Of a stretch of DNA of 64,000 nt, positions 7,989 through 55,385 are shown piece by piece (within the stretch, counting starts at the first letter, position 1; each line of letters opens with the position of its first letter). The notes beneath the pieces were generated by a model. It was not told where the DNA came from. It did not search any database and was given only the letters and a program-made list of their open reading frames with translations. Where the stretch lies: contig PLZJ01000002.1 in NCBI GenBank assembly GCA_003152105.1, positions 753,713-817,712 of the forward strand, written 5' to 3'. The position numbers and the translations under genes were made by a program. The DNA comes from Candidatus Levyibacteriota bacterium (GTDB lineage Bacteria > Patescibacteriota > Microgenomatia > Levybacterales > UBA12049).

Positions 7989-8894
7989 CTATTTTTTACT
8001 ACATAAATGTATTAATTGACTTATTGCTTCTTCAAAAGTAAATCCTGCTGCTTCTACTGCTTTTGGAAATAAACTTTGATTCGTAAGGCCTGGTATACTA
8101 TTTATTTCTAAGACATAAATTTGATCTTTTGTAATAATAAAATCAGTTCTTGAAAGATATTTAAATCCTAACTCTCTATGAATGCGTAGTGCTATTTTTT
8201 TAATTTTTTCTTGCAAGGCAGGTAAGAGAGAAGGAGCAAAGGGAATCTCTTTCGTCTTTCCATTATACTTATTATCATAGGTAAACAATTCTTTATTGGG
8301 AGTTTGAATTTCAATTAACGGAAGAACTTTTTTTTCTAAAATCCCTACGGTTACTTCTATGCCAGTTATATATGATTCAATCATAACTTCATGATATTTA
8401 TCAAATATATAAGTAGCAATATTATTTAAATCTTCTTTATTGCCTACAATCTGCACGTCTATGCTTGATCCGTTTTCAAGTGGCTTAATAATGACAGGGT
8501 AAATAAATGGCATATTATTAATGGTTTTTCTTGTTGCAATAAACCAATCTGGTGTTTTAATACCAAGAGATTTACATATATTTTTAAATGTACGCTTATT
8601 CCAACTTTTATGACATGTACTTGATGTTGGACCAATAAATTGCAATTTATTTTTTTCCAAAAAGTACGATAATTTTCCATCTTCGCCTTCAAAACCATGT
8701 AAAACAGGAAATATGACTGTATATTGTAAAAGAAGTGGTAATAAGTTATATAAGCCTAAACGAATATCAAATATTTTTACCCGGTAGTCTAAATTTTTAA
8801 TTGTTTCAAATATATTTGTAGCAGAAAGTAATGAAATTTCTTTTTCATCACATGTACCTCCAGTTAGAATAGCAATTGATGGTGGTTTATTCAT
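7989..8894 (-). CDS. ddl: D-alanine--D-alanine ligase
   Basis: The N-terminus IAILTGGTCDEKEISLLSA matches the pattern LFGG.S.EHEVSL.SA and is followed by an ATP-grasp C-terminus. Length is 301 aa. Confidence 0.75.
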   Translation of the reverse strand: MNKPPSIAILTGGTCDEKEISLLSATNIFETIKNLDYRVKIFDIRLGLYNLLPLLLQYTVIFPVLHGFEGEDGKLSYFLEKNKLQFIGPTSSTCHKSWNKRTFKNICKSLGIKTPDWFIATRKTINNMPFIYPVIIKPLENGSSIDVQIVGNKEDLNNIATYIFDKYHEVMIESYITGIEVTVGILEKKVLPLIEIQTPNKELFTYDNKYNGKTKEIPFAPSLLPALQEKIKKIALRIHRELGFKYLSRTDFIITKDQIYVLEINSIPGLTNQSLFPKAVEAAGFTFEEAISQLIHLCSKK

Positions 8895-19632: not shown

Positions 19633-20679
19633 CTATGCTTCAGCTAATTTATTCTTAAAATAATCTACCCAAGGATTTATCGCAGGGTTTTGATTATAAT
19701 ATAAGGCCAAATAGAGCGTAACATAACTTCCATAAAGTAACATTTCAAAAAAATCATCATACATTGATGCACCTGAGGTTTCGTATTCTTCAATCGTTCT
19801 TTTGTTTTGCTTAACCACTTCAGTTGTAAGTTTTACCCTTTTTTGTATTTTAGGAGAATAATTTGGAGAAAAAAAGGAGATAAATGCCAAAGGAGCTTCT
19901 GTTGGAAAAAGTAATCCCTCCATTAAATGGTGATTTAAATCTGGAATTAGATAGAAAGCAGAAAATGATTTACTTGTTTCATTAAATTGATTTCTAAATA
20001 TCTGCGCGTTTCCCGCTAAATGTTCCGCTGCAAAAATTACTGGAATTTTATTAATATATTTTTGGTAATCTTTTCGTGCATTTTCTCGAATTGAAAGTTG
20101 ATTCTGAGAAAGTCTTTTTAACGCATCTTCTAATTCTTGTTCTTCCAAAGAAAGTATTCCCGTCTTATCTATAAGTCCAAGCAATCCTAAAATAGTATAT
20201 CCCGCACCAAGTCTTGGAGTACCCGAAGGATTTAGTTTTCCATCAAAAATATATGCAGTGATATTATGTTTTTTCGCAAATTCTGCAAGTTCTCCTCCTT
20301 TTGTTAAAATTACCATTTTTGCTTGTTTTGACAATGCCTCTTCTGCACAAGATAATACCTCTTCAGTAGACCCTGAATAACTAGTTAGAACAACAAGCGT
20401 TTGATGATTAACATATTCAGGCAAGTGGTAATCTGAAATTACCTCAGAAGGATATTTCATAAATTTACCCTGTAAAGCTTTTAAAACTAAAGCCCCATAT
20501 ATTGAAGCTCCCATGCCACAAAAAACAATATTTTTAATATCTGAGAATTTATGCGTAACAGTGACTTCATTCACTTCTTTCCATGCTTGTTCTAATTGTT
20601 TTACTAAGTTTTCAGTTGAAAGAACGGTATTTTGAGGATCAATTTTTTGGAGTTCTTCTTTATTATCAAAATCTATCAT
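19633..20679 (-). CDS. bifunctional phosphoglucose/phosphomannose isomerase (SIS domain, archaeal-type)
   Basis: The SIS fold has VFCGMGASIYGA and SYSGSTEEV, matching the PGI/PMI signature SYSGNT.E. It is about 330 aa. Confidence 0.55.
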   Translation of the reverse strand: MIDFDNKEELQKIDPQNTVLSTENLVKQLEQAWKEVNEVTVTHKFSDIKNIVFCGMGASIYGALVLKALQGKFMKYPSEVISDYHLPEYVNHQTLVVLTSYSGSTEEVLSCAEEALSKQAKMVILTKGGELAEFAKKHNITAYIFDGKLNPSGTPRLGAGYTILGLLGLIDKTGILSLEEQELEDALKRLSQNQLSIRENARKDYQKYINKIPVIFAAEHLAGNAQIFRNQFNETSKSFSAFYLIPDLNHHLMEGLLFPTEAPLAFISFFSPNYSPKIQKRVKLTTEVVKQNKRTIEEYETSGASMYDDFFEMLLYGSYVTLYLALYYNQNPAINPWVDYFKNKLAEA

Positions 20680-20683
20680 TTAC

Positions 20684-21118
20684 TTATACTTCCTTTCGTT
20701 CTAATTTTCTTTGCGCTTCTGTTTCATCAGGACGATTAAAATCATCTTCCAATCGCATCGTTGTACCAATTTCTGGCGTAGACACTTCAACTATATCACA
20801 ATCCGTAACTGCAATATGTCTATGTTTTTGCCCTACGATTGTCGTATATCCTCTTCCTTTTTCCATATGTAATGTTATTAGATTTTTTTCTTTGTTTTCA
20901 ATAATAAGATCACACTCTCCATTTAACAACCAATATGATTCTTGTTTTTTATCATGAACTTGTAAAGATAGACGTGCGCCTTTGTTAATATGAAGAATTT
21001 TCCCCATATAAGGAAGTCCTTCTGGAACCCAATGAAGTTCATAACCCCAAGGTTTATCAATTTTTTTAACATATGAAGAGGTAGAAAACGTTGAAGAATC
21101 AAAGGTTGAAAAATCCAT
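20684..21118 (-). CDS. cupin domain protein (mannose-6-phosphate isomerase type II-like)
   Basis: KPWGYELHW...LSLQVHDKK.ESYWLLNGE has cupin His residues and is PMI/GMP C-terminal-like. Confidence 0.45.
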   Translation of the reverse strand: MDFSTFDSSTFSTSSYVKKIDKPWGYELHWVPEGLPYMGKILHINKGARLSLQVHDKKQESYWLLNGECDLIIENKEKNLITLHMEKGRGYTTIVGQKHRHIAVTDCDIVEVSTPEIGTTMRLEDDFNRPDETEAQRKLERKEV

Positions 21119-21124
21119 AAATAG

Positions 21125-43797: not shown

Positions 43798-45324
43798 ATG
43801 AATAAATCTGCAGAATATCTTGAAGCAAGAGCAGAAACATTGGGTGCACATCTTCATAAAGAACCTTCAAGTGGCGTTTCGATTACTGGATATGCTGCAT
43901 TAACTCCACTTGGTGACACGCAGGAAACTTTTGAAGGAATGTTAAATGGGCAGTCAGGTGTGGTTGAATTTGATGCAAATAATTTTGCGGTAAATGTAGC
44001 AGCACCTGTAAAACATTTCGACCCACTAGAACATTTTGATAGACGCGCACTCCGAGGTGTATCGTACGTTACTGCAATGGCTGATGTATTAACACAAAGA
44101 GCTGCCTTAGATGCTGGACTTATTCAGAGCACAAATGAAATGTTGGGCGACGAATTACCAAGTGGACAGAAACAAGATAGACATAAAATAGGAAGCTCAA
44201 TTGGAAGTGGCATTGGTCCAACCCCTAATATATTACGTATTTATCAACAATTATATAAAGATGTTGAAGGATTGGAAAGTAAATTAAGGCAAACAATTAA
44301 TCCTGAAGAAAGAAGTGAATTAGAAGGTGAAATAAAAGCAAAAATTAGAAAAAACTCTGAAAGAGTAGGACCATTGTGGGGACTGGAAATGTTCCCTGAA
44401 GAAGTAAATTCAGATCCATCTATGAAACTTGGTTATTCTGGACCAGGTATTAGCGATACTGCAGCATGTGCGACTGGACTTTCAAATGCAGTCGAATCTG
44501 TTCGAAAAATAAAAGAAGGTGAAAGTGAAAAAGATTTTGGTGGAGGTGTAGAAGCTATCTTAACTGATCCAAATAATATTCATATTGGTGACATTGGAAT
44601 TGCGTCATTTGCAGCACTTCGCCTTGTGCTTTCTACAGAATATTTTAATATTTTAAAGAAAACAATAACTAGTCCTGAAGAATCTAGCCGGCCTTATGAT
44701 CGAAATAGAGATGGATTTGTTCTGGGCGAAGGTGGAGCAGTTGTTTTATTTGAAAGATCTGATTTAGCAGCAGCAAGAGGAGCAAACGTACATGCAGAAG
44801 TTGTCGGATACAGTAAATCACTGGATGGTAAAGGTCAAACAGATTTGGATGTTGATAATGTTGCAAGAACTATTCTTGAAGCGTGCGAAAACCGTTGGAC
44901 TTATGAAATAGAAGTTCCTGATGTTATATTTGCCCATGCAACAGCTACAAAATCTGGCGACAGAGCAGAGGCAAAAGCATTGTATAAAGCATTTGGAAAG
45001 TTACTGCAAGACATTCCCATTACTGCAAATAAAAGTAATATCGGTCATTTAGCTGGAGGAGCGGGAAGTGTAAATCTAGCAATGGCGATAGAAGCACTTC
45101 GCCAACAACAAATTCCTCATATTTTAAATTTAGTTAATCCTAGATTAAATTTAGAAAATCCGGAAGAAGAAGATGATGAAGAAATAAACCATGTCGTTTT
45201 TGTTAGAAATGAGCCGCTTAAAGGAAACTTTCAAAAAGCACTTATACTTGGGTATGGTTTCGGGGGAAATAATGCTGCAATGTTGATTAGAAGACCAAAG
45301 CTTCATAACTTACTAGTTTATTAG
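43798..45324 (+). CDS. beta-ketoacyl-ACP synthase I/II-like ketosynthase (FabF/FabB family) with insertions
   Basis: The N-terminus VSITGYAALTPLGDTQETFEGMLNGQSGV leads to the active-site Cys DTAACATGL, then HATATKSGD and NIGHLAGGAG, a CHH triad. At 508 aa it carries a charged insert and an acidic C-terminal stretch EEEDDEE. Confidence 0.7.
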   Translation: MNKSAEYLEARAETLGAHLHKEPSSGVSITGYAALTPLGDTQETFEGMLNGQSGVVEFDANNFAVNVAAPVKHFDPLEHFDRRALRGVSYVTAMADVLTQRAALDAGLIQSTNEMLGDELPSGQKQDRHKIGSSIGSGIGPTPNILRIYQQLYKDVEGLESKLRQTINPEERSELEGEIKAKIRKNSERVGPLWGLEMFPEEVNSDPSMKLGYSGPGISDTAACATGLSNAVESVRKIKEGESEKDFGGGVEAILTDPNNIHIGDIGIASFAALRLVLSTEYFNILKKTITSPEESSRPYDRNRDGFVLGEGGAVVLFERSDLAAARGANVHAEVVGYSKSLDGKGQTDLDVDNVARTILEACENRWTYEIEVPDVIFAHATATKSGDRAEAKALYKAFGKLLQDIPITANKSNIGHLAGGAGSVNLAMAIEALRQQQIPHILNLVNPRLNLENPEEEDDEEINHVVFVRNEPLKGNFQKALILGYGFGGNNAAMLIRRPKLHNLLVY

Positions 45325-46971
45325 CTTAGGAATAATTGATCGCTTTACTACAGTCGCTTGCAAATCTTTTATGCCTCCGATAATTGTTCCTTCAGAAGAA
45401 ATAACGATATTACTACCAAATGTGCGTTTATCTAATTGAACAGTTTCTGCGTCATAACAAATTCCATCTCCAGCTCTGACTGTATGATTATCAAAAAAAT
45501 CTGTTTCCCCAATTCTTAAAAATAATGGCATTACATTTGTATCAATTTTTTCAAGATGAACAATGCCAGCTGCTTGGGCAGCACCTTCTATCAACTGATC
45601 TTCAAGTAAAGCAACAACTTCATCATTAGTAACTTGCTTAACCTTTAATCCTTTAATGCTCGCAGTAATTTTATTGTCATGTTCTCGAATTATAGAAACA
45701 TTATATGTGCCATCATCACAGAGCTGCGGTTCAACCCGCAATACTGTTTTTCCATCAGCAGATACAATTTCTTTAAACTCAACTTCTCTAAAGCCTACTA
45801 ACTTAAGATTTCCATCTCCTAATCCTAAATGAGATGAAATTAAGCCAATTGTTTCAATTGCTGCTCTAATTTGTTTGTGTCCTGGAAGTATTTTTGGCAA
45901 TCCACTTTCTGGAGCAAAATGCCCTTCTGCTAATAACTGATCAACATGAACGACACCATAATATGCGCTAGGATCGCCTTCTTTTTGTTTTACCGTTGTC
46001 ACAAGTTGCTGATCATTTTCTCTTGTGACTTGATTTTTTGTTGCTATTGCTCTTCCAATTCCAGATTTTCTATCTTCATCTTGATTATTTCTTTCCATAG
46101 TTTGTACGTAAACCTGTTGTGTTCCATACCACTGCTCAAGCATTGTTTGCGCATCTTCGATATCATTAAAAAATTCAGTATAACCGCTTGGAACTGATGG
46201 ATTTTTTAATAAAGCGATAACTTTTTCTCCTACCTCTGATGTTGGTACAGTTCTTGGGAGTCCAAGTTTATCCGATATAACATTATGCATATCCTCCGCA
46301 GAATACTGACCATTTGACTCTCTTTTTGCTGCTATATTAAATACCATAACATTTGCAGTATCTGGTACGATTGGTGGCGTTACTTCTAAAAATCGTATAC
46401 CCCGCTCTGCCATTTCTGCTTGTCGCTTATGAAGTGATTGTAAATCTTCATATTTGTGTCTGGCAACATTGTCGTATTGTGAAACTATTGATATGGCACC
46501 TCTGAGTTGTGGGTCAAAATGACCTGGCACACTTTGCAATCTAATGATTACACCTCCGTCATTCATGATAGGCAAAAATTGAGTTACTAAATCATTTGAA
46601 GCGTCACTGTTTAGCGCTTGAGTTGATCCAGATGTTACAAGAACTACATAATCTACTTTACCATTAAGCTTTTCTGCTGCTTCTTGAAATAACTGCTTTC
46701 TCCCTTCAGAAGTCGACATATCAGCAGATAAACCATAAGCTGTACCATTATTTTCTGAAACATCATGCAGCACCGTATTTGCCCGCTTTTGCTTATCTCT
46801 AAATGAAAATGCTACCGTTACTTTTTCAGCTGCCAATGCTTTAACGATTGCAGCTCCAATATCTCGATTACCACCAGATACAAAAGCGGTCTTGTCAACT
46901 AAAGAAAGTTCACGATTTATCTGCCTGTCTTGTATTATTTGATCTAATGTTACTGCTTGTTCTGGACTCAT
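45313..46971 (-). CDS. fusion protein: N-terminal SDR with Y-x6-K (enoyl-reductase-like FabI/FabL spacing) + FabZ-like hot-dog dehydratase + extra C-terminal region
   Basis: The N-terminal Rossmann fold has AFVSGGNRDIGAAIVKALA and YDNVARHK (Tyr-x6-Lys). The middle has HFAPESGLPKILPGHKQIRAAIETIGLI, matching the FabZ GHFP...PG...EA.AQ pattern. Total length is 552 aa. Confidence 0.5.
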   Translation of the reverse strand: MSPEQAVTLDQIIQDRQINRELSLVDKTAFVSGGNRDIGAAIVKALAAEKVTVAFSFRDKQKRANTVLHDVSENNGTAYGLSADMSTSEGRKQLFQEAAEKLNGKVDYVVLVTSGSTQALNSDASNDLVTQFLPIMNDGGVIIRLQSVPGHFDPQLRGAISIVSQYDNVARHKYEDLQSLHKRQAEMAERGIRFLEVTPPIVPDTANVMVFNIAAKRESNGQYSAEDMHNVISDKLGLPRTVPTSEVGEKVIALLKNPSVPSGYTEFFNDIEDAQTMLEQWYGTQQVYVQTMERNNQDEDRKSGIGRAIATKNQVTRENDQQLVTTVKQKEGDPSAYYGVVHVDQLLAEGHFAPESGLPKILPGHKQIRAAIETIGLISSHLGLGDGNLKLVGFREVEFKEIVSADGKTVLRVEPQLCDDGTYNVSIIREHDNKITASIKGLKVKQVTNDEVVALLEDQLIEGAAQAAGIVHLEKIDTNVMPLFLRIGETDFFDNHTVRAGDGICYDAETVQLDKRTFGSNIVISSEGTIIGGIKDLQATVVKRSIIPKLIN

Positions 46972-47952: not shown

Positions 47953-50900
47953 ATGTGCAATAACTTATATATGAGCAAAATTGCTAATAACTCATTACGT
48001 GAAAATAGCTCACATTTAGTAAGAAACTATTGGGATAAATTTTTAAAACTACCGACAATAATTAAATACGCAGTAGTAATAATGGTTTTTATTCTACTTT
48101 CTATTCCAACTGGACTATTAACAAGACAAAGTTTATTTAATTTTGCTTCACAAACCCAAGGATTTCATGTCATTTCTAATACACTTTATTATAATGACAA
48201 GCCATTTAAAGCATGGGGATTTAATATGGTTGGTGCTTTAGGACAAGCAAATTGTGGAGATGGAACAAGTTCTGATCCAAATGGAAAAGTTGCTGCTCAA
48301 AATTTTAACAATAATGAACTCTCTTATATGGAAAAAAATTGGGGTGCTCCAACTATTATTAGAATTCAGGTCTCTCAACCGGCATTAAGCGGTAAATTAT
48401 CTTCTATTAGCTGGCAAAATTACGCAAGTCAGATAGAAAATGATATTAAATTAGCAGAAAACAATAAGGTCAATGGGATTATAATTGCCATGCAAAATGG
48501 ACAAAATGGCTGTGGAAATAGTGCATCTTATCCTTCGAATGATACAAATGTAGCATGGATGAATTTAATATCAAATACAACAATTAAATCAGATCCTCAG
48601 GTTCTTCTTGAACTATATAATCAGCCTCAAAATAACGGAAATAATAGTAATCAATGGCTCACTTGGAAATATGGGAATATGCGAAAAGGAAGTACTTGTC
48701 GAGCTTACTCTGGAAATATCTTTGGAATGGAATGCTTGGCAGAAAATATTAGAAATAGAGGAGTAAGCAACGTATTAATTGCAGATGGAGCAGACAAAGC
48801 ATCAAATTTCCTAGGAATTAGCCAAAAAGACACCAATACAAATTCTCCAAATTACAATCAAAACTATTTGTTGGACGACCAAAATACTGTTTACGGAATT
48901 GAACCATATGGGCAAGATATCAATTCAAATAATAACACATCGAAGATTATATGGGATGCGAATTTTGGTACGCTTTCTCAAACTAAACCTGTGTTAGTTA
49001 CTGAATGGAATATGACGTTACAAAGCTGTACTCGAAACGCCTTAACAACTCAAGAGGTACAAGCACTTGGGTATCCAACTCCAAATAGTAACCAAACATA
49101 TTACCAATATAATGGGGAAGATAATACATCACCATTTTTCTCATACTTAAGTGCTCACAATATCGGATTAATTGTTAATAGTTTTGACTCGTCAAATACA
49201 ACAATAAGAACTACAAATGCTTCTACTGGTAACTGGAATAATTGGTATCCAAGTAAATGTGAGATGGCAGTTGGAATTAACAATAACCTACCAAATAGCA
49301 GTGCAGGAAACATATTGCCTTCTGGACTTATATATAATATTGGCGTAGGATGGGATGTTTTGCAACAATTCCGACAGTGGGCAGTTTTAACAGACAGAGC
49401 ATTTTTACCTCATATTATTGCTGGCTATTGGCTAACAAATCCACAAGATATTAAAATAGCCGCGAAAGAAAAAGTACAATTTATTCATACGTATGGTGAC
49501 TTCAATAATTTACCAGGAAATGCTTATCCTATACTTAAATCAAATAATATGAAAGTTATTTCTTCAGATTTATTAACACCCCTTAATGATTATGGTTGTT
49601 GGCACTATAGAATGTATCATCCAACCTATAATTCATACATTGCATCATGTAAATCTATGCCAAACGGGTATGCTAATTTTCAAGCCAATGCTTACGGACT
49701 CCAAAGCGCAAATAATTTATTGCTAACAAGAATAAAAAATAAATTAATTGCAATTAGAAACAATACCAAATACGCTTCTTATTTATCTTATCTTTATGTA
49801 ATCGATGACTGGGGTAGCGGAGATTTTAAAAGTGCAAAGACACCTCTGAAAGAAATTAATGGCTTAATTCATACCATTATTCCAGGCGTACAAAGTATTT
49901 GCGGATTTTCGTTTGGGAGCGTACCATTTAAATCACACGCAGGAACAGTAAGTTATTTTGCTAATCCCTTAAATAATTATTCACCGGAAGGTTGTGATAA
50001 TGTCAGTGGATATGGATATGCGGTCAGATATAAAACAGATAGTGCCAAAAATTATGATTGGAAAATGCCAGGCATAATGGAAGCATGGCAAAAACAGTTA
50101 ATAGCAAACGGAATAAGTGATTATCCGAATTGGAATAAAATAGTAAATGTAATTGGTACGGGCCAGGTATTTGGAAGCTACACAGGTAGTTACGTTATTC
50201 CTTTATATGACACTGCAACCGCTAAAAAATTAAATGTACCAATTTATCAACCAATAATTGATCAGGAAACAGATTTTTGTAAGTTAGGAATGTCTTTATT
50301 TTTTTATGACTATCATGCTAGTGGAAGTTATTATACTCCTGCAAACAATACAAGTATTGATGAAGGAGTTAAACAATCTATAATACAATGTAATCAAATC
50401 TGGAACACGATTACTGTTGTCACCCCTACTTTTACTCCAACGCCAACGCTTACACCAACGCCAACGCTTACACCTACACCTACCCCAACCCTATCTCCAA
50501 CGCCTTCTCCAACGCCAACGCTTACACCTACACCCACTTTAACACCTACCTCTACGCCAACTCCACCTCCGGGATGTTTTTATAAACAACAAGAATGCAA
50601 TATTCACAAAGGTCAGGTTAGTTGCGGGCCAGAAATATTAATTTGTACAACTCCAACACCAATTACAGTTATAAATCCTGTACAAAACAAATTAATTAAT
50701 GGGTCATTTGATTTTGGTAATTTAACCGGCTGGACAACGTTTAATAAATCAGTGAATTCTAATACGGTTGCTATTGACCCATCAACATTCGTAAATGGCA
50801 ATTATTCTGTTAAAGCAACTATTAATCAGCCTGGAAAAAAAGAATGGTACTTTCAGTTAATGCAAGGTCCAGTACAGCTTAGCTTAAGCACAAACTATAT

Positions 50901-51162
50901 GATATCTTTTTATGCCAAGGCTTCTCAAAATAGGAGATTACAAGTATTTGTGCAAAACTCAAATCACATTCCATATTCAACGCAAAACTTTATATTGACA
51001 ACTACTTGGCAAAAATATTCATTTAATTATTTTCAACCTTCAACAGATGACAACGCAGCGCTAAAGTTTAATCTAGCTGATGCAGCAGGAAATATTTGGA
51101 TTGATAAAGTATCATTATCCCCGGTTCTGGTTAATATTGAGAATAAAGATACTTTACCGTAA
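47953..51162 (+). CDS. giant secreted/anchored CAZyme-like protein: N-terminal TM, glycoside-hydrolase-like domain, Pro/Thr linker, C-terminal CBM4/9-like domain
   Basis: [18 protein letters not shown] is present. ...LELYNQPQ... and LVTEWN are reminiscent of GH5-clan acid/base and nucleophile positions, but the assignment is weak. The PT linker reads [52 protein letters not shown]-terminal beta-sandwich has [14 protein letters not shown]...WYFQLMQ. The start may be the ATG at 47971, because 47953 lies in the spacer of TTGACA (47936). Confidence 0.55.
50424..50572 (+). repeat. tandem 6-9 nt coding repeats (ACNCCNACN..CTT) encoding a (T-P-T-L)n linker
   Basis: The degenerate repeat reads acgccaacgcttacaccaacgccaacgcttacacctacacc... 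Comparable PT tracts occur at about 52966-53020, 54780-54840 and 55188-55300. Confidence 0.6.
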
Positions 51163-51255: not shown

Positions 51256-52140
51256 ATGAATTATTTCTTTAAACATAAAATCCCTTTGTTTAAACAAAAA
51301 TTTTCATCATTAGATAAATTCCATAAGCTGAGCATAGGGATTGTATTATTGTTTATATTTGTAACCCCCTCGCTTGCACTTGTCACAAACTTATTCACTA
51401 ACGCCTCTTCCCTTGACTCATTCAGACTAGAGGCAGAACCAACTTCTACAAATAGTAATAGGTTATCTGGAAATGTTAGTGTGGTAACCGATACTAGTTC
51501 ATCTAACGGACAGGCTATACTATTTGGATCTAATGGAGTAAATGGTGCCAATGTTACTTTTAATCCATCAGTTATTCCCTTTTCTGCACCAGAGATAGGT
51601 AATCCATGGCACGGACAATATGAGTGGCAACAAGGACAACTGATCCCTTCACCATGGCCTGTTACAGATTCCTATCTTCGCTACGATACTGCGCCAACGG
51701 ATATAGGCTCTTGGGCTACTCTTGAACCAACACAGGGAAATTATGACTTCTCTTCAATTGATACAGCTTTGGCACAGGCAAAAGCAAATGGAGGCAAACT
51801 TGGAATAACAATTGCTGCTGCAAGAGGAGATATTACGGGTCAAGCATTTATACCAAATTATTTAATAAGTGATATGGCTGGAGATTCACAATCATACTGG
51901 AGTGGAGTTTCACCGGGAAATGGAGTATATGTGCCGGATTGGAATAATAGTTTTTTTATGACACGAGCGCAGGCTCTAATTAATGCGTTGGCTGCAAAAT
52001 ATGCAAATGACCCACGTCTTGGATGGATTGAAACCGGAATTTATGGAAATTATGCAGAGTGGATAAATGATGGTCTTCCAAATGGTCCAAGTGGTCAAAC
52101 ACCTGCTGTAATTACCGATGCAAATAAAAAAACATCATAG
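51256..52140 (+). CDS. N-terminal fragment of a frameshifted giant surface protein (TM anchor + DUF4874-like glycoside-hydrolase-like region)
   Basis: It has the TM IGIVLLFIFVTPSLALV. LRYDTAPTDIGSWATLEPTQGNYDFSSIDTALAQAKANGGKLGITIAAA is typical of the DUF4874 TIM-barrel family. It stops right after an A7 tract. Confidence 0.5.
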   Translation: MNYFFKHKIPLFKQKFSSLDKFHKLSIGIVLLFIFVTPSLALVTNLFTNASSLDSFRLEAEPTSTNSNRLSGNVSVVTDTSSSNGQAILFGSNGVNGANVTFNPSVIPFSAPEIGNPWHGQYEWQQGQLIPSPWPVTDSYLRYDTAPTDIGSWATLEPTQGNYDFSSIDTALAQAKANGGKLGITIAAARGDITGQAFIPNYLISDMAGDSQSYWSGVSPGNGVYVPDWNNSFFMTRAQALINALAAKYANDPRLGWIETGIYGNYAEWINDGLPNGPSGQTPAVITDANKKTS

Positions 52141-52223: not shown

Positions 52224-55200
52224 ATGAGCTTAACTCCAAAACCTGGCTCTCCGGCTATTGGGTGGCGGTATAACAGTCTTGGGACCCTTGGACCAACTGC
52301 TAGTTATCTAACAGGACTTCAATATTGGGAAACACCACCACCAGCTGGTGCAGATGGAACAATACTATCGGAGCGATGGAAAACTGCTCCTGGTATAGTA
52401 GAATTTGGTGGTTTATCACCTTCTTCAACTACTGACTCACTTAATGATGCCTATACAGACGTGCTTCGTTACCACATTGATATGGTTGATGGAAGTTATT
52501 TTGATAACTGGAATAATTACTCAAGTGCTGAGCAGGCAACTTTGCAAAATATTATGGAACACTCGGGCTACAGAATTAGTCTTGATTCCCTAACACTGCC
52601 CTCAGTAGTCAGTCCAGGGAATAATTTTACAGTTTCTACTAATTGGTCTAATCTTGGTTCTACACCTGCATATAATCCATGGAATATCATGATTGAGCTT
52701 AAGGACTCATCTGGAAATGTTGCGTGGCAAGGAAAATCAAGTTTAGATTTTCAAACTCTACTTCCTACTAACTCAACAGGAACAGATATTCCAAATACTA
52801 CAACTGATACTTTCACAGTTCCTTCCAGTATTCCTTTGGGAACTTATTCTGTTTCTGTAAAAATAGTAGATCCAACAGGCTATTATAATCCAATGAATTT
52901 AGCAAATTCGGCAAAACAATCGGATGGAAGTTATTTACTTGGTCAAATTTCAGTTGGTAGCTTGGCTCCAACACCAACACTATCACCATCTGGAACTCCA
53001 ATAACTCCTACACCTATTACGAACTCGTCATTTCTTTGGCCAAATATACAAGGTAAAGTAGGAGCATTTTTTATAGGATTAAATAATAATTCAGATGTTG
53101 CACTAACTGCTGGGCAGGGTTTAAATCAAACTGTGCTTGATACAGTAAATCCAGGTAGTAGATTGGAAAATTTATATAATCAGTACAATTTTAAATACTA
53201 TGATTATTATGTCTGGAACCAAATCTACGGCAACTGTCAAACAAACCATGCAGCAGGATACGTTTGTCCATATTATCAAAACTCATCAAATCTACAGTCT
53301 GCATTAAGCGCAATTCAATCACATATTAATAGCAATAGTATTGCGACAGATAAAGCGGTAAGTGGATATGTCATTTTGGACGATTTTCCTGGAATTATTC
53401 CTCAAACATTCTTTGATCAAGTTGCAACTATGATACACAACGCCAATGCTGGATCAAATGGTATGACAAAATCAGCGATTTCCAGACCAACCATATGTGA
53501 CTTCGGAGGGTGGTTGGATTATAAGACAAGTGTAAACGGAGCTTGGAACCATAATGATAACGATATTACAAAACAATCTACAAATTTCTATCCTGCTGAT
53601 TGTGACATGGTCGAGCTTTATCCAGAATGCTACAACGAACCAGCAAATTATTCACATGGGGATTGGTGTGATTGGACAATGCAGGACACTACAGGAGGAA
53701 ATACGCCAAAAATAACTAGAGAATATAACATATTACAAAGTAAAGGTTGGGATATTACTAAAGAACCATTAATTGCCAATGCTCAGTCATATGGCTATAC
53801 CGCCGCCTACCAATCGGGAAGCGGAGTATATATTATTCCTCCTACAGGAATAGAGGAAAGTACTTTAATAAAGTCATATTGTGATACTGGAGCAACTTCT
53901 GTAAATGATTTTGCCTGGGATGATCCTGCTCATGCCTCAAATATTAAATCTGAACTTGCTAACGATTCAGGCATGTATAGCGGATTTTTGAGTGGTGTAA
54001 ATTACTGCAAATCTAAGTGGGGAATAGCTATGGGCCCTTCCTCATCCAAAATAGCAAATGTAAATTCATCATTTAATTTAATATCAATGCTTGGTAAGCT
54101 TGTGCAACATTTTACTTCTATGTTCAGTGCACACGCGCAAACCCTAACACCAACCACAATTCATTTGATTTCAGGTTACTCCGGCACCAATACTGGGGGT
54201 AACACAATTGTTTTTGGACCTCCAAGTGGATACTCAGCAGATGATGTAATGATTGCGCAAATTACAACCCAAGGAACACCAGGAATAACACCTCCTGATA
54301 GTAGTTGGAACGGTATTAAACGTACAAACACAGCTTCAAACTCTTTGGTTCAAGAATTATATTATCATGTAGTAAAAGCTAGTGAACCATCGACCTATAC
54401 ATTTACCTTCACATCCCCAGAACAAGCTTCTGGAGGAGTTGCTGATTATAGTGGAGTTAATACTTCAAATCCAGTAGATCAGGTTAATCAAGGATCAGCT
54501 CTTAACTCTAGTAATATTTCAGCCGCAAGCATAAATGTTAATGCAACCGGAGAAAGACTTATGTTTTTTGGAGGATCACTTTCGAATACATCCTTTACAC
54601 TTCCAACTGGCATGTCACAAGTATGGCAAAAAGAAAATACTGCCATTTCATCTAATTTAGCGGACTTATATACCAATGCTGGCTCAACTGGGGTTATAAA
54701 TGAAAGCAGTGCAGTTTCAGCAGATAATGTTGCACAAGATTTATTACTTCAACCAGCAGGTTCAACTTTTACAAATCCCACGCCAACTTCTACTCTTTCA
54801 ATATCTCCTACCCCAGTCTCAGCTTCACCTACACCCAGTTGTTCTCCTTTACCTAGTGGAAAAGGTACAGATGTTATTACCTTTACAGTACCAACAGGCA
54901 CTAACTCTTATAACGTCTGGTTTAGAATGAAAGTACCAACTTCTGGCGACTCAATTTATTCACAACTTACGGACAATTCCGGCAATGCATTTGGATGTCC
55001 ATCACAAATTATTGATAATAATACAGTAGATGGAAACTGGCACTGGATTCCTCAAGGTCAAAATTCCTTAACCCAGGGACAAACTTACACATTTACTTTG
55101 ACTGGAAATCAAGATGGAGTTAAAGTTGATGAAATAATATTGTCTCAAACATGTGGACCAACAGGAGTAGGCGATAACTGTCTAGCTGCTCCTACACCAA

Positions 55201-55385
55201 CACCTACCTTAACACCTATTCCTTCACCTACAGCTGTTCCAAGCCCAATTACAACATCTACTCCTACGCCTGTCAGACCTACTCCAACATCTACACCTCT
55301 AAGTTGCAAAAAACTTTCTATTAATTGCTATTATACAAATTTAAGTACCTGTTCTTATGTTTGCGGAGACACAAAACATAAGTAG
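52224..55385 (+). CDS. C-terminal part of the same surface protein (DUF4832-like + PT linkers + C-terminal CBM-like domain)
   Basis: The frame is open from 52128 (coding-like NIIDWWVNSFPKTRILAVIEEDGDQYGFKYA) upstream of the first ATG. It has PAIGWRYNSLG...W.TAPG and then multiple PT linkers. The C-terminus has NWHWIPQGQ..TYTFTLTGNQDGVKVDEIIL, a lectin/CBM-like sandwich. Confidence 0.55.
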   Translation: MSLTPKPGSPAIGWRYNSLGTLGPTASYLTGLQYWETPPPAGADGTILSERWKTAPGIVEFGGLSPSSTTDSLNDAYTDVLRYHIDMVDGSYFDNWNNYSSAEQATLQNIMEHSGYRISLDSLTLPSVVSPGNNFTVSTNWSNLGSTPAYNPWNIMIELKDSSGNVAWQGKSSLDFQTLLPTNSTGTDIPNTTTDTFTVPSSIPLGTYSVSVKIVDPTGYYNPMNLANSAKQSDGSYLLGQISVGSLAPTPTLSPSGTPITPTPITNSSFLWPNIQGKVGAFFIGLNNNSDVALTAGQGLNQTVLDTVNPGSRLENLYNQYNFKYYDYYVWNQIYGNCQTNHAAGYVCPYYQNSSNLQSALSAIQSHINSNSIATDKAVSGYVILDDFPGIIPQTFFDQVATMIHNANAGSNGMTKSAISRPTICDFGGWLDYKTSVNGAWNHNDNDITKQSTNFYPADCDMVELYPECYNEPANYSHGDWCDWTMQDTTGGNTPKITREYNILQSKGWDITKEPLIANAQSYGYTAAYQSGSGVYIIPPTGIEESTLIKSYCDTGATSVNDFAWDDPAHASNIKSELANDSGMYSGFLSGVNYCKSKWGIAMGPSSSKIANVNSSFNLISMLGKLVQHFTSMFSAHAQTLTPTTIHLISGYSGTNTGGNTIVFGPPSGYSADDVMIAQITTQGTPGITPPDSSWNGIKRTNTASNSLVQELYYHVVKASEPSTYTFTFTSPEQASGGVADYSGVNTSNPVDQVNQGSALNSSNISAASINVNATGERLMFFGGSLSNTSFTLPTGMSQVWQKENTAISSNLADLYTNAGSTGVINESSAVSADNVAQDLLLQPAGSTFTNPTPTSTLSISPTPVSASPTPSCSPLPSGKGTDVITFTVPTGTNSYNVWFRMKVPTSGDSIYSQLTDNSGNAFGCPSQIIDNNTVDGNWHWIPQGQNSLTQGQTYTFTLTGNQDGVKVDEIILSQTCGPTGVGDNCLAAPTPTPTLTPIPSPTAVPSPITTSTPTPVRPTPTSTPLSCKKLSINCYYTNLSTCSYVCGDTKHK

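Follow-up and report, generated by a model that had tools for sequence, protein, structure and literature searches.

A short-chain reductase fused to a double hot-dog in a fatty-acid-synthase-like gene cluster of Levyibacteriota: a putative dehydratase/enoyl reductase

Which protein would carry out the last two steps of fatty-acyl elongation in a bacterium whose fatty-acid-synthase (FAS)-like gene cluster otherwise lacks exactly a dehydratase (DH) and an enoyl reductase (ER)? The question is raised by a gene in a 64,000-nt stretch of Candidatus Levyibacteriota bacterium (assembly GCA_003152105.1, contig PLZJ01000002.1, positions 753,713 to 817,712; hereafter the window), which has a G+C content of about 32–37%. 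The gene encodes a single polypeptide in which a short-chain dehydrogenase/reductase (SDR) is followed by a hot-dog region (Table 1). Bacteria of the candidate phyla radiation (CPR) are usually described as unable to synthesize lipids (PMC7304191, PMC7242380), which makes a conserved FAS-like cluster in genomes of the Microgenomates group noteworthy. We consider it probable, with some reserve, that the fusion is a bifunctional 3-hydroxyacyl dehydratase/NADPH enoyl reductase that takes the last two steps of a type II-like elongation cycle.

The open reading frame (ORF) is a genuine conserved gene and no chance product, because it has many divergent homologues that share invariant residues. A word-indexed search returned 31 homologues at 32–48% identity, and those that bear a name are labelled Candidatus Levybacteria or "Microgenomates group". 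The N-terminal 290 residues, used as query in an exhaustive HMMER search of 1.84 billion representatives, matched 54 of these at E<1e-10. The AlphaFold model of the full-length protein has a predicted local distance difference test (pLDDT) score of 91.6 and a predicted template modelling (pTM) score of 0.89, and a model of residues 286–552 has a pLDDT of 93.6.

The N-terminal domain passes the Pfam adh_short model (PF00106; 45 bits against a cutoff of 26.6) and matches adh_short_C2 as well. The initial annotation had described it as an SDR with the Y-x6-K spacing of enoyl reductases and an atypical glycine motif, fused to a FabZ-like dehydratase. All the strings on which this description was built were located: SGGNRDIG at residues 32–39, YDNVARHK at residues 166–173, GHF with H351, and IRAAIE at residues 368–373. 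In an alignment of 29 sequences, from which the figures of at least 90% conservation are also taken, G33, R36, G39, D107, S114, G115, S147, Y166, A170 and K173 are invariant. A pattern search found no Y-x3-K anywhere in the 552-aa protein. For the register of Tyr and Lys, a profile of residues 103–262 was aligned to the classical SDR structures 6ihh and 4h15, and a profile of residues 18–288 was aligned to E. coli FabG. In all three HMMER alignments K173 falls on the catalytic Lys (that of RasADH, 4h15 and E. coli FabG) and V169 occupies the classical Tyr position, so Tyr166 is shifted three residues towards the N terminus. An hhalign comparison of the family with the neighbouring FabG gave a different Tyr/Lys register, with low confidence in that stretch. 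Judged from these alignments, the Tyr166/K173 arrangement is the one that defines SDR enoyl-ACP reductases (FabI/FabL/InhA), and the ER-type Y-x6-K of the initial annotation is borne out. Among the 97 relatives, nearly every one that extends to this region keeps Y-x2-[VI]-A-x2-K; a few members of a distant branch have Y-x7-K instead of Y-x6-K.

The Y-x6-K spacing is common to FabI and FabL; FabL, which is NADPH-specific, carries the signature Asn-Xn-Ser-Xn-Tyr-X6-Lys without the methionine of FabI (PMC9260719). This extended signature is present in the SDR domain as N121, S147, Y166 and K173, with Val at position Y+3 and no internal Met. The features of FabI, a Gx5SxA cofactor motif and Yx2Mx3K, were not found in the domain: its cofactor motif follows TGGSRDxG, and Val stands in place of Met. 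The SDR profile matched E. coli FabI at 19 bits, and this match was confined to the N-terminal 80 residues. The glycine motif is atypical, as had been proposed, in its replacement of Gly by Asp; otherwise it is a classical TGxxxGxG of the NADPH "SRGIG" type.

The best NCBIfam match of the SDR domain is PRK07806 (NF005868), at 96.3 bits over residues 24–212, and the next family follows at 43 bits. As the PRK07806 cutoff is 162 bits, the domain is a relative of this family and no member of it. The motif Y-x-x-[VI]-A-x-[ST]-K is likewise present in genuine PRK07806 proteins recovered by the exhaustive HMMER search. For all four PRK07806 members with a second match, FabL was the clear second-best family (63–97 bits, with other SDR families at about 70 or less), and in two of the four the FabL match ran over the full length. 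The SDR domain is therefore linked to FabL transitively.

Several results weigh against an enoyl reductase. The FabL model itself (NF005975) scored 33 bits in the SDR domain against a cutoff of 328 and covered residues 25–116 only. The domain is below the cutoff of every curated family, its predicted structure singles out neither FabI nor FabL and has uninformative structural neighbours, and PRK07806 is an uncharacterised "SDR family oxidoreductase" subfamily, for the function of which we found no published account. Of the ER identity proposed in the initial annotation, the part that rests on motif and register stands, and neither the FabL cutoff nor the structure adds to it.

Genes of the PRK07806 family were seen in three kinds of neighbourhood. 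In Auritidibacter ignavus CP125879.1 (locus L027, 6194–7786), a true Y-x6-K PRK07806 gene lies directly downstream of a gene for a FabG-like SDR, an order that mirrors the FabG-to-fusion order of the window and recalls the mabA-inhA pair of mycobacteria. A second PRK07806 gene has an acyl-AMP ligase and a large ketosynthase as neighbours, and a third has no lipid context.

The C-terminal 267 residues are, by profile comparison and structure prediction, a double hot-dog. The middle domain is a hot-dog fold, as the initial annotation had expected of its FabZ-like dehydratase, and neither a fold of another kind nor, in the three HMMER alignments, the Tyr/Lys register of an ordinary ketoreductase was found. 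The "further C-terminal region of unknown function" of about 130 aa proved to be the second half of the double hot-dog. The boundaries first drawn, 330–470 and 470–552, were approximate; the actual units are the SDR (about 20–285), hot-dog 1 (about 286–446) and hot-dog 2 (about 447–552). In hhalign profile-profile comparisons with the single hot-dog of short relatives, residues 335–436 matched at 96.5% (E 9e-10) and residues 437–552 at 99.5% (E 4e-23). The two repeats did not match each other significantly in a direct hhalign comparison (E 0.3), and we conclude that the hot-dog was duplicated because each repeat separately matches the single form. In the predicted structure, two long central helices are each wrapped by an antiparallel sheet.

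Neither the window protein nor its halves matched the Pfam FabA model PF07977, even at E<=10 (gathering cutoff 23 bits). The short relatives P0029–31 (409–422 aa) pass this cutoff at 24–29.5 bits, as does the distant long homologue of locus L013 at 33 bits. The alignment shows one hot-dog in each short form, with the textbook FabZ motif GHF...PGHxMIEAxxQ, and two units in the long forms. The PS-DH model (PF14765) gave no match to the window protein and 11.7–12.6 bits with the short forms, against a cutoff of 23.7.

For residue equivalences, the repeat profiles were aligned to E. coli FabZ (catalytic His54 and Glu68). H351, the proposed catalytic His, aligns with His54 and is at least 90% conserved. 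The catalytic Glu, which the initial annotation had sought in IRAAIE, lies elsewhere. In repeat 1, R369 stands at the Glu68 position and E373 at the position of Gln72; the equivalent of Glu68 is E462 in the IEGAAQ of repeat 2, which is invariant among the nine closest sequences. The pattern of R369 and E462 also occurs in a branch at 28–30% identity. Of the two symmetry-related sites the second has been lost, since Arg fills the Glu position of repeat 1 and the His loop is missing from repeat 2. As in the double hot-dog of type I DH domains, the His lies in the N-terminal half and the acidic residue in the C-terminal half. The assignment as a dehydratase is strong, with the fold, the FabZ motif, the conserved His and Glu, the Pfam-positive sister forms and the pathway context in agreement. 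Two relatives, P0015 and P0018, have GYF in place of GHF, with Tyr for the catalytic His, and in P0018 the residue equivalent to E462 is Ala as well; by these substitutions they may be dehydratase-dead copies.

A FabG-like gene of the same strand precedes the start of the fusion gene by 4 nt, and the two are probably in one operon. The 3' end of the fusion gene overlaps by 12 nt with the convergent FabF-like gene. A FabG-like gene also lies directly upstream of the fusion in six relatives' loci (L001, L003, L005, L008, L011 and L014). A FabF- or FabD-like gene often adjoins the fusion in relatives, and FabH-like genes and the methyltransferase recur in varying combinations; these partners were seen around homologues from 28 to 48% identity. 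L001 and L005 each encode a Crp-type regulator. In L013, a fused acetyl-CoA carboxylase (ACC) gene followed by a FabH-like gene stands immediately before the fusion, and FabD and FabF lie 5 kb downstream. In L005, an Sfp-type phosphopantetheinyl transferase is encoded at 20378–21121, 9 kb from the fusion. When the window and the 24 loci were searched with E. coli FabZ and FabI, no further FabZ- or FabI-like gene came up.

Table 1. Coordinates of the fusion gene, its domains and catalytic positions, and neighbouring genes in the window
Feature	Position	Strand	Remarks
SDR + double hot-dog fusion gene	45313..46971	-	552 aa; ATG start; stop codon 45313–45315
SDR (Rossmann) domain, residues ~20–285	46117..46914	-	Putative NADPH-dependent enoyl reductase
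Hot-dog repeat 1, residues 286–446	45634..46116	-	Extra N-terminal strands, His loop, central helix 364–381, antiparallel sheet
Hot-dog repeat 2, residues 447–552	45316..45633	-	Central helix 457–472, sheet, C-terminal helix; without His loop
Cofactor motif S32-G-G-N-R36-D37-I-G39	46855..46878	-	G33, R36, G39 invariant; D37 at least 90% conserved; family consensus TGGSRDxG
N121	46609..46611	-	At least 90% conserved; Asn of the Asn-Ser-Tyr-Lys signature
S147	46531..46533	-	Invariant; Ser of the Asn-Ser-Tyr-Lys signature
Y166-D-N-V-A170-R-H-K173 (Y-x6-K motif)	46453..46476	-	Y166, A170, K173 invariant (n=29)
H351 (GHF)	45919..45921	-	Aligns with FabZ catalytic His54; at least 90% conserved
R369 (IRAA)	45865..45867	-	At FabZ catalytic Glu68 position, repeat 1
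E462 (IEGAAQ, ExxxQ motif)	45586..45588	-	Aligns with FabZ catalytic Glu68, repeat 2
FabH, 343 aa	41778..42809	+	Passes NCBIfam FabH cutoffs (354 bits against 249)
Class I S-adenosylmethionine-dependent methyltransferase (Methyltransf_11/25), 285 aa	42819..43676	-	Recurs in relatives' clusters
FabF-like ketosynthase, 508 aa	43798..45324	+	Convergent with fusion gene
FabG-like ketoreductase, 298 aa	46976..47872	-	Classical YSASK; directly upstream of fusion gene

Canonical fab clusters hold acpP between fabG and fabF. Searches by regular expression and by phmmer, for which the acyl carrier proteins (ACP) of E. coli and B. subtilis were the queries, found no ACP gene in the window or within 10 kb of the fusion in the 24 loci. 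Small conserved downstream ORFs (109 aa in L001, 135 aa in L005, 83 aa in L026 and 162 aa in L013) were considered as ACP candidates and rejected, as they are not ACP-like. FabD, FabF and the phosphopantetheinyl transferase imply a carrier protein, and we therefore assume that it is encoded elsewhere. A bolder reading of the missing ACP gene is that the system runs on coenzyme A (CoA) or on an unrecognised carrier.

These observations suggest a possible course of reaction. The double hot-dog would derive from a FabZ-type single hot-dog, and His351 of repeat 1 and Glu462 of repeat 2 would form one FabZ-like site at the pseudo-dimer interface. At this site a (3R)-hydroxyacyl thioester, carried by ACP or CoA, would be dehydrated to the trans-2-enoyl thioester. 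The SDR domain would then reduce the enoyl thioester to a saturated acyl chain, with NADPH as the cofactor suggested by the Arg-containing glycine motif. Hydride would be delivered to C3, Tyr166 would act on the enolate, and Lys173 would hold the nicotinamide ribose. With the neighbouring FabG-, FabF- and FabH-like genes, and the FabD-like and acetyl-CoA carboxylase genes of relatives, the fusion would complete an elongation cycle in CPR bacteria of the Microgenomates group. We infer the reductase activity of the SDR domain because the Y-x6-K register is invariant and the classical Tyr is absent, because the domain is linked to FabL via PRK07806, because a separate canonical ketoreductase (KR) is encoded next door, and because the cluster otherwise lacks exactly these two activities.

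The alternative that survives best, unlikely as we hold it to be, is a dehydratase joined to a second ketoreductase or another carbonyl reductase of unusual Tyr/Lys geometry, for example one with another chain-length or stereospecificity than the neighbouring FabG. The pathway would then be without an enoyl reductase and would lead to unsaturated or polyene/polyketide-like products, perhaps modified by the methyltransferase. The overall similarity of the SDR domain, in sequence and in structure, is indeed highest to FabG-type and other ketoreductases. The methyltransferase is conserved in the cluster, the PRK07806 gene beside an AMP-ligase and a large ketosynthase would suit such a pathway, and FAS-like clusters without an ER are known for aryl polyenes. 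However, an invariant Y-x6-K with the Lys in the classical register is the arrangement of enoyl reductases and is undescribed for ketoreductases, and the nearest functionally named family, reached via PRK07806, is FabL. A canonical FabG-like KR is already encoded immediately upstream, and ACC, FabD, FabH and FabF point to ordinary malonyl-based elongation.

The layout of an SDR with a double hot-dog is also that of the peroxisomal multifunctional enzyme type 2 (MFE-2; HSD17B4/Fox2), and a degradative enzyme of β-oxidation could be imagined, with the SDR as its 3-hydroxyacyl-CoA dehydrogenase and the double hot-dog as its enoyl-CoA hydratase 2. MFE-2, which degrades CoA esters, differs from the fusion in having a Y-x3-K dehydrogenase and a MaoC/hydratase-2 hot-dog with D-x-N-P-x-H. 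A pattern search found neither Y-x3-K nor the hydratase-2 motif [YF]-x-x-[LVIG]-[STGC]-G-D-x-N-P-[LIV]-H in the window protein, and we regard this possibility as very improbable.

Least probable of all, if by little, is that only the dehydratase is catalytic and the SDR is a structural or regulatory nucleotide-binding scaffold that dimerises the DH or docks it to partners, like the pseudo-KR of polyketide synthases (PKS): the atypical glycine motif with Asp at the second Gly position and the scores below all curated cutoffs would fit a silent domain, but the strict conservation of G33, R36, G39, S147, Y166 and K173 (N121 at least 90%) at 32–48% identity, and the same motif in stand-alone enzymes of the clade, argue for SDR catalysis.

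The distribution of the family bears on how a fusion of this kind could have arisen. A scan of GTDB species genomes gave 19 matching loci. Thirteen encode the fusion and belong to Levybacteria, Levyibacteriota, Daviesbacteria, unclassified Patescibacteria and mislabelled metagenome-assembled genomes (MAGs), with one full-length fusion branch at only 28–30% identity; the other six, from unrelated phyla, encode the SDR part only. The architecture of the 97 relatives was assigned with hidden Markov models of the repeats and a motif search, and three forms were found: the SDR alone (245–280 aa), ending just past a conserved GYTEFF; the SDR with one hot-dog (about 390–450 aa); and the SDR with two hot-dogs (about 530–606 aa). 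PRK07806-like sequences with SRGIG also occur fused to one or two hot-dogs (P0089, P0092 and P0097). In a Rosetta-stone test of the stand-alone SDR relatives P0039 and P0040 from CPR bacteria, neither had FabZ or FAS genes adjacent, and their neighbourhoods were unrelated. The MAGs of L007, L008, L010–L012, L015 and L016 are labelled "uncultured Gammaproteobacteria bacterium" (third-party annotation (TPA) assemblies). These labels look like placeholders or errors, as gene content and similarity to Levybacteria indicate CPR.

The coexistence of single and double hot-dog forms, together with the complementary loss of catalytic residues, suggests that the duplication is lineage-specific. We put forward tentatively, and with more doubt than belief, that the family preserves an independent and still visible transition from a type II to a type I-like system. 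A FabL-like ER would have been fused to a FabZ monomer, the hot-dog would then have been duplicated and its copies subfunctionalised, and Levy- and Daviesbacteria would thereby have gained a compact de novo fatty-acid synthase with clustered ACC, FabD, FabH, FabF and FabG. The forms of about 390–450 aa may represent the first fusion stage, and the transition may recapitulate, in one CPR lineage, the route proposed for the DH domain of megasynthases.

Several features of the neighbouring genes are recorded here as observations in their own right. The FabF-like ketosynthase is about 100 aa longer than a typical FabF, with an insertion around residues 100–200, and scores 239 bits against the FabF cutoff of 494. 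The FabG-like reductase is extended at its N terminus by about 50 residues, among which Ser, Asn and Pro are abundant, and scores 156 bits against the FabG equivalog cutoff of 298. The fused carboxylase of L013 (5101–8316, plus strand) is a 1071-aa polypeptide that combines biotin carboxylase and both carboxyltransferase halves of ACC; no biotinyl (biotin carboxyl carrier protein, BCCP) domain was detectable in it. Copies of the methyltransferase lie at 8248–9141 in L003, 16687–17550 in L005, 12962–13861 in L014 and 16128–17150 in L016. An identity as BioC was considered and found no support (39 bits, with the cutoff at 185); the enzyme resembles a generic class I methyltransferase, and the acyl product may be what it modifies. 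Two conserved hypothetical proteins (about 293 aa and 109–135 aa) are encoded as a pair after a FabH-like gene or the methyltransferase in L001 (15973–17185) and L005 (17591–18881). Neither protein has a Pfam family, and the small one of L005 begins with four tandem SLYSEKK repeats. Beyond the FabG-like gene of the window, two very large ORFs on the plus strand (47953–51162, 1069 aa; 52224–55385, 1053 aa) flank a glycoside-hydrolase-42-like gene (51256–52140). The first contains a long Thr-Pro repeat linker and Asn-rich sequence, and both probably encode secreted or surface carbohydrate-active proteins.

If the proposed dehydratase/enoyl reductase is correct, it would add one more type to the bacterial enoyl reductases, akin to FabL and PRK07806, and would be the first case of an SDR-type ER in covalent linkage with its dehydratase. 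It would be relevant to the diversity of enoyl reductases and to what is assumed about inhibitors of the triclosan type. The uncharacterised PRK07806 family, which may be an unrecognised enoyl reductase family in Actinobacteria, would gain a function that can be tested. The stand-alone, single and double hot-dog forms would offer a natural series for the origin of a one-site pseudo-dimeric DH from FabZ-like homodimers. The cluster of ACC, FabD, FabH, FabF and FabG with the DH-ER would suggest that some CPR bacteria elongate or make acyl chains, and metabolic models of these presumed symbionts would change. A compact de novo synthase in Levy- and Daviesbacteria, if real, would contradict the view that CPR bacteria cannot make their own lipids. 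Family members now carry the annotation "SDR family oxidoreductase" or "hypothetical", and pathway reconstructions that use these labels would therefore score FabZ and FabI as missing.

Compared with known systems, the parts of the fusion are familiar: an SDR enoyl reductase like FabL and a dehydratase of the FabZ type. We found no published description of their combination. FabL and the SDR domain both have a fold of the classical SDR type, and in both the glycine motif is of the TGxSRxxG type, with the Arg that is typical of NADPH users. They also agree in the Asn-Ser-Tyr-x6-Lys signature, which lacks the methionine of FabI, and in their FAS II context. Unlike FabL, the SDR domain has Asp for the second Gly of the cofactor motif, a longer loop between Ser and Tyr (18 residues) and a conserved C-terminal extension (H229, LGLP, GYTEFF), and it is covalently joined to a dehydratase. 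With PRK07806 it shares the Y-x-x-[VI]-A-x-[ST]-K motif and an "ASG" segment, whereas SRGIG in PRK07806 is SRDIG in the fusion family. In contrast to the fusion, most PRK07806 members are unfused, about 260 aa long, and found in Actinobacteria and Chloroflexi.

The hot-dog region resembles FabZ in its GHF...PG...(I/L)E(A/G)xAQ motif, in a His/Glu dyad contributed by two hot-dog units across their interface, and in the pathway step that it would serve. FabZ is a single hot-dog that forms homodimers or hexamers with two sites per dimer, and at each site one subunit provides the His and its partner the Glu. The fusion differs in that two diverged units lie in one chain, of which repeat 1 alone keeps the His and repeat 2 alone the Glu. 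It would thus have one site per pseudo-dimer, and it has extra N-terminal strands on repeat 1 and an SDR attached.

A single retained pair, with His from repeat 1 and an acidic residue from repeat 2, is also the arrangement of the DH domains of type I FAS and PKS. Sequence identity to such domains is only 11–14% (CurJ DH, 3kg8; PpsC DH, 4ooc), and the acidic residue of the fusion is Glu as in FabZ and not Asp, in an ExxxQ rather than a DxxxQ motif; the type I domains are marked by HxxxGxxxxP and DxxxQ/H. In type I megasynthases, a DH is joined to an ER of the medium-chain dehydrogenase/reductase type in animal FAS and PKS, of the flavin mononucleotide/TIM-barrel type in fungal FAS, and of a FabK-like type in the synthases of polyunsaturated fatty acids. 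Unlike these systems, the fusion is free-standing at 552 aa, its domains follow the order ER-DH instead of DH-ER, and its putative enoyl reductase is of the SDR type.

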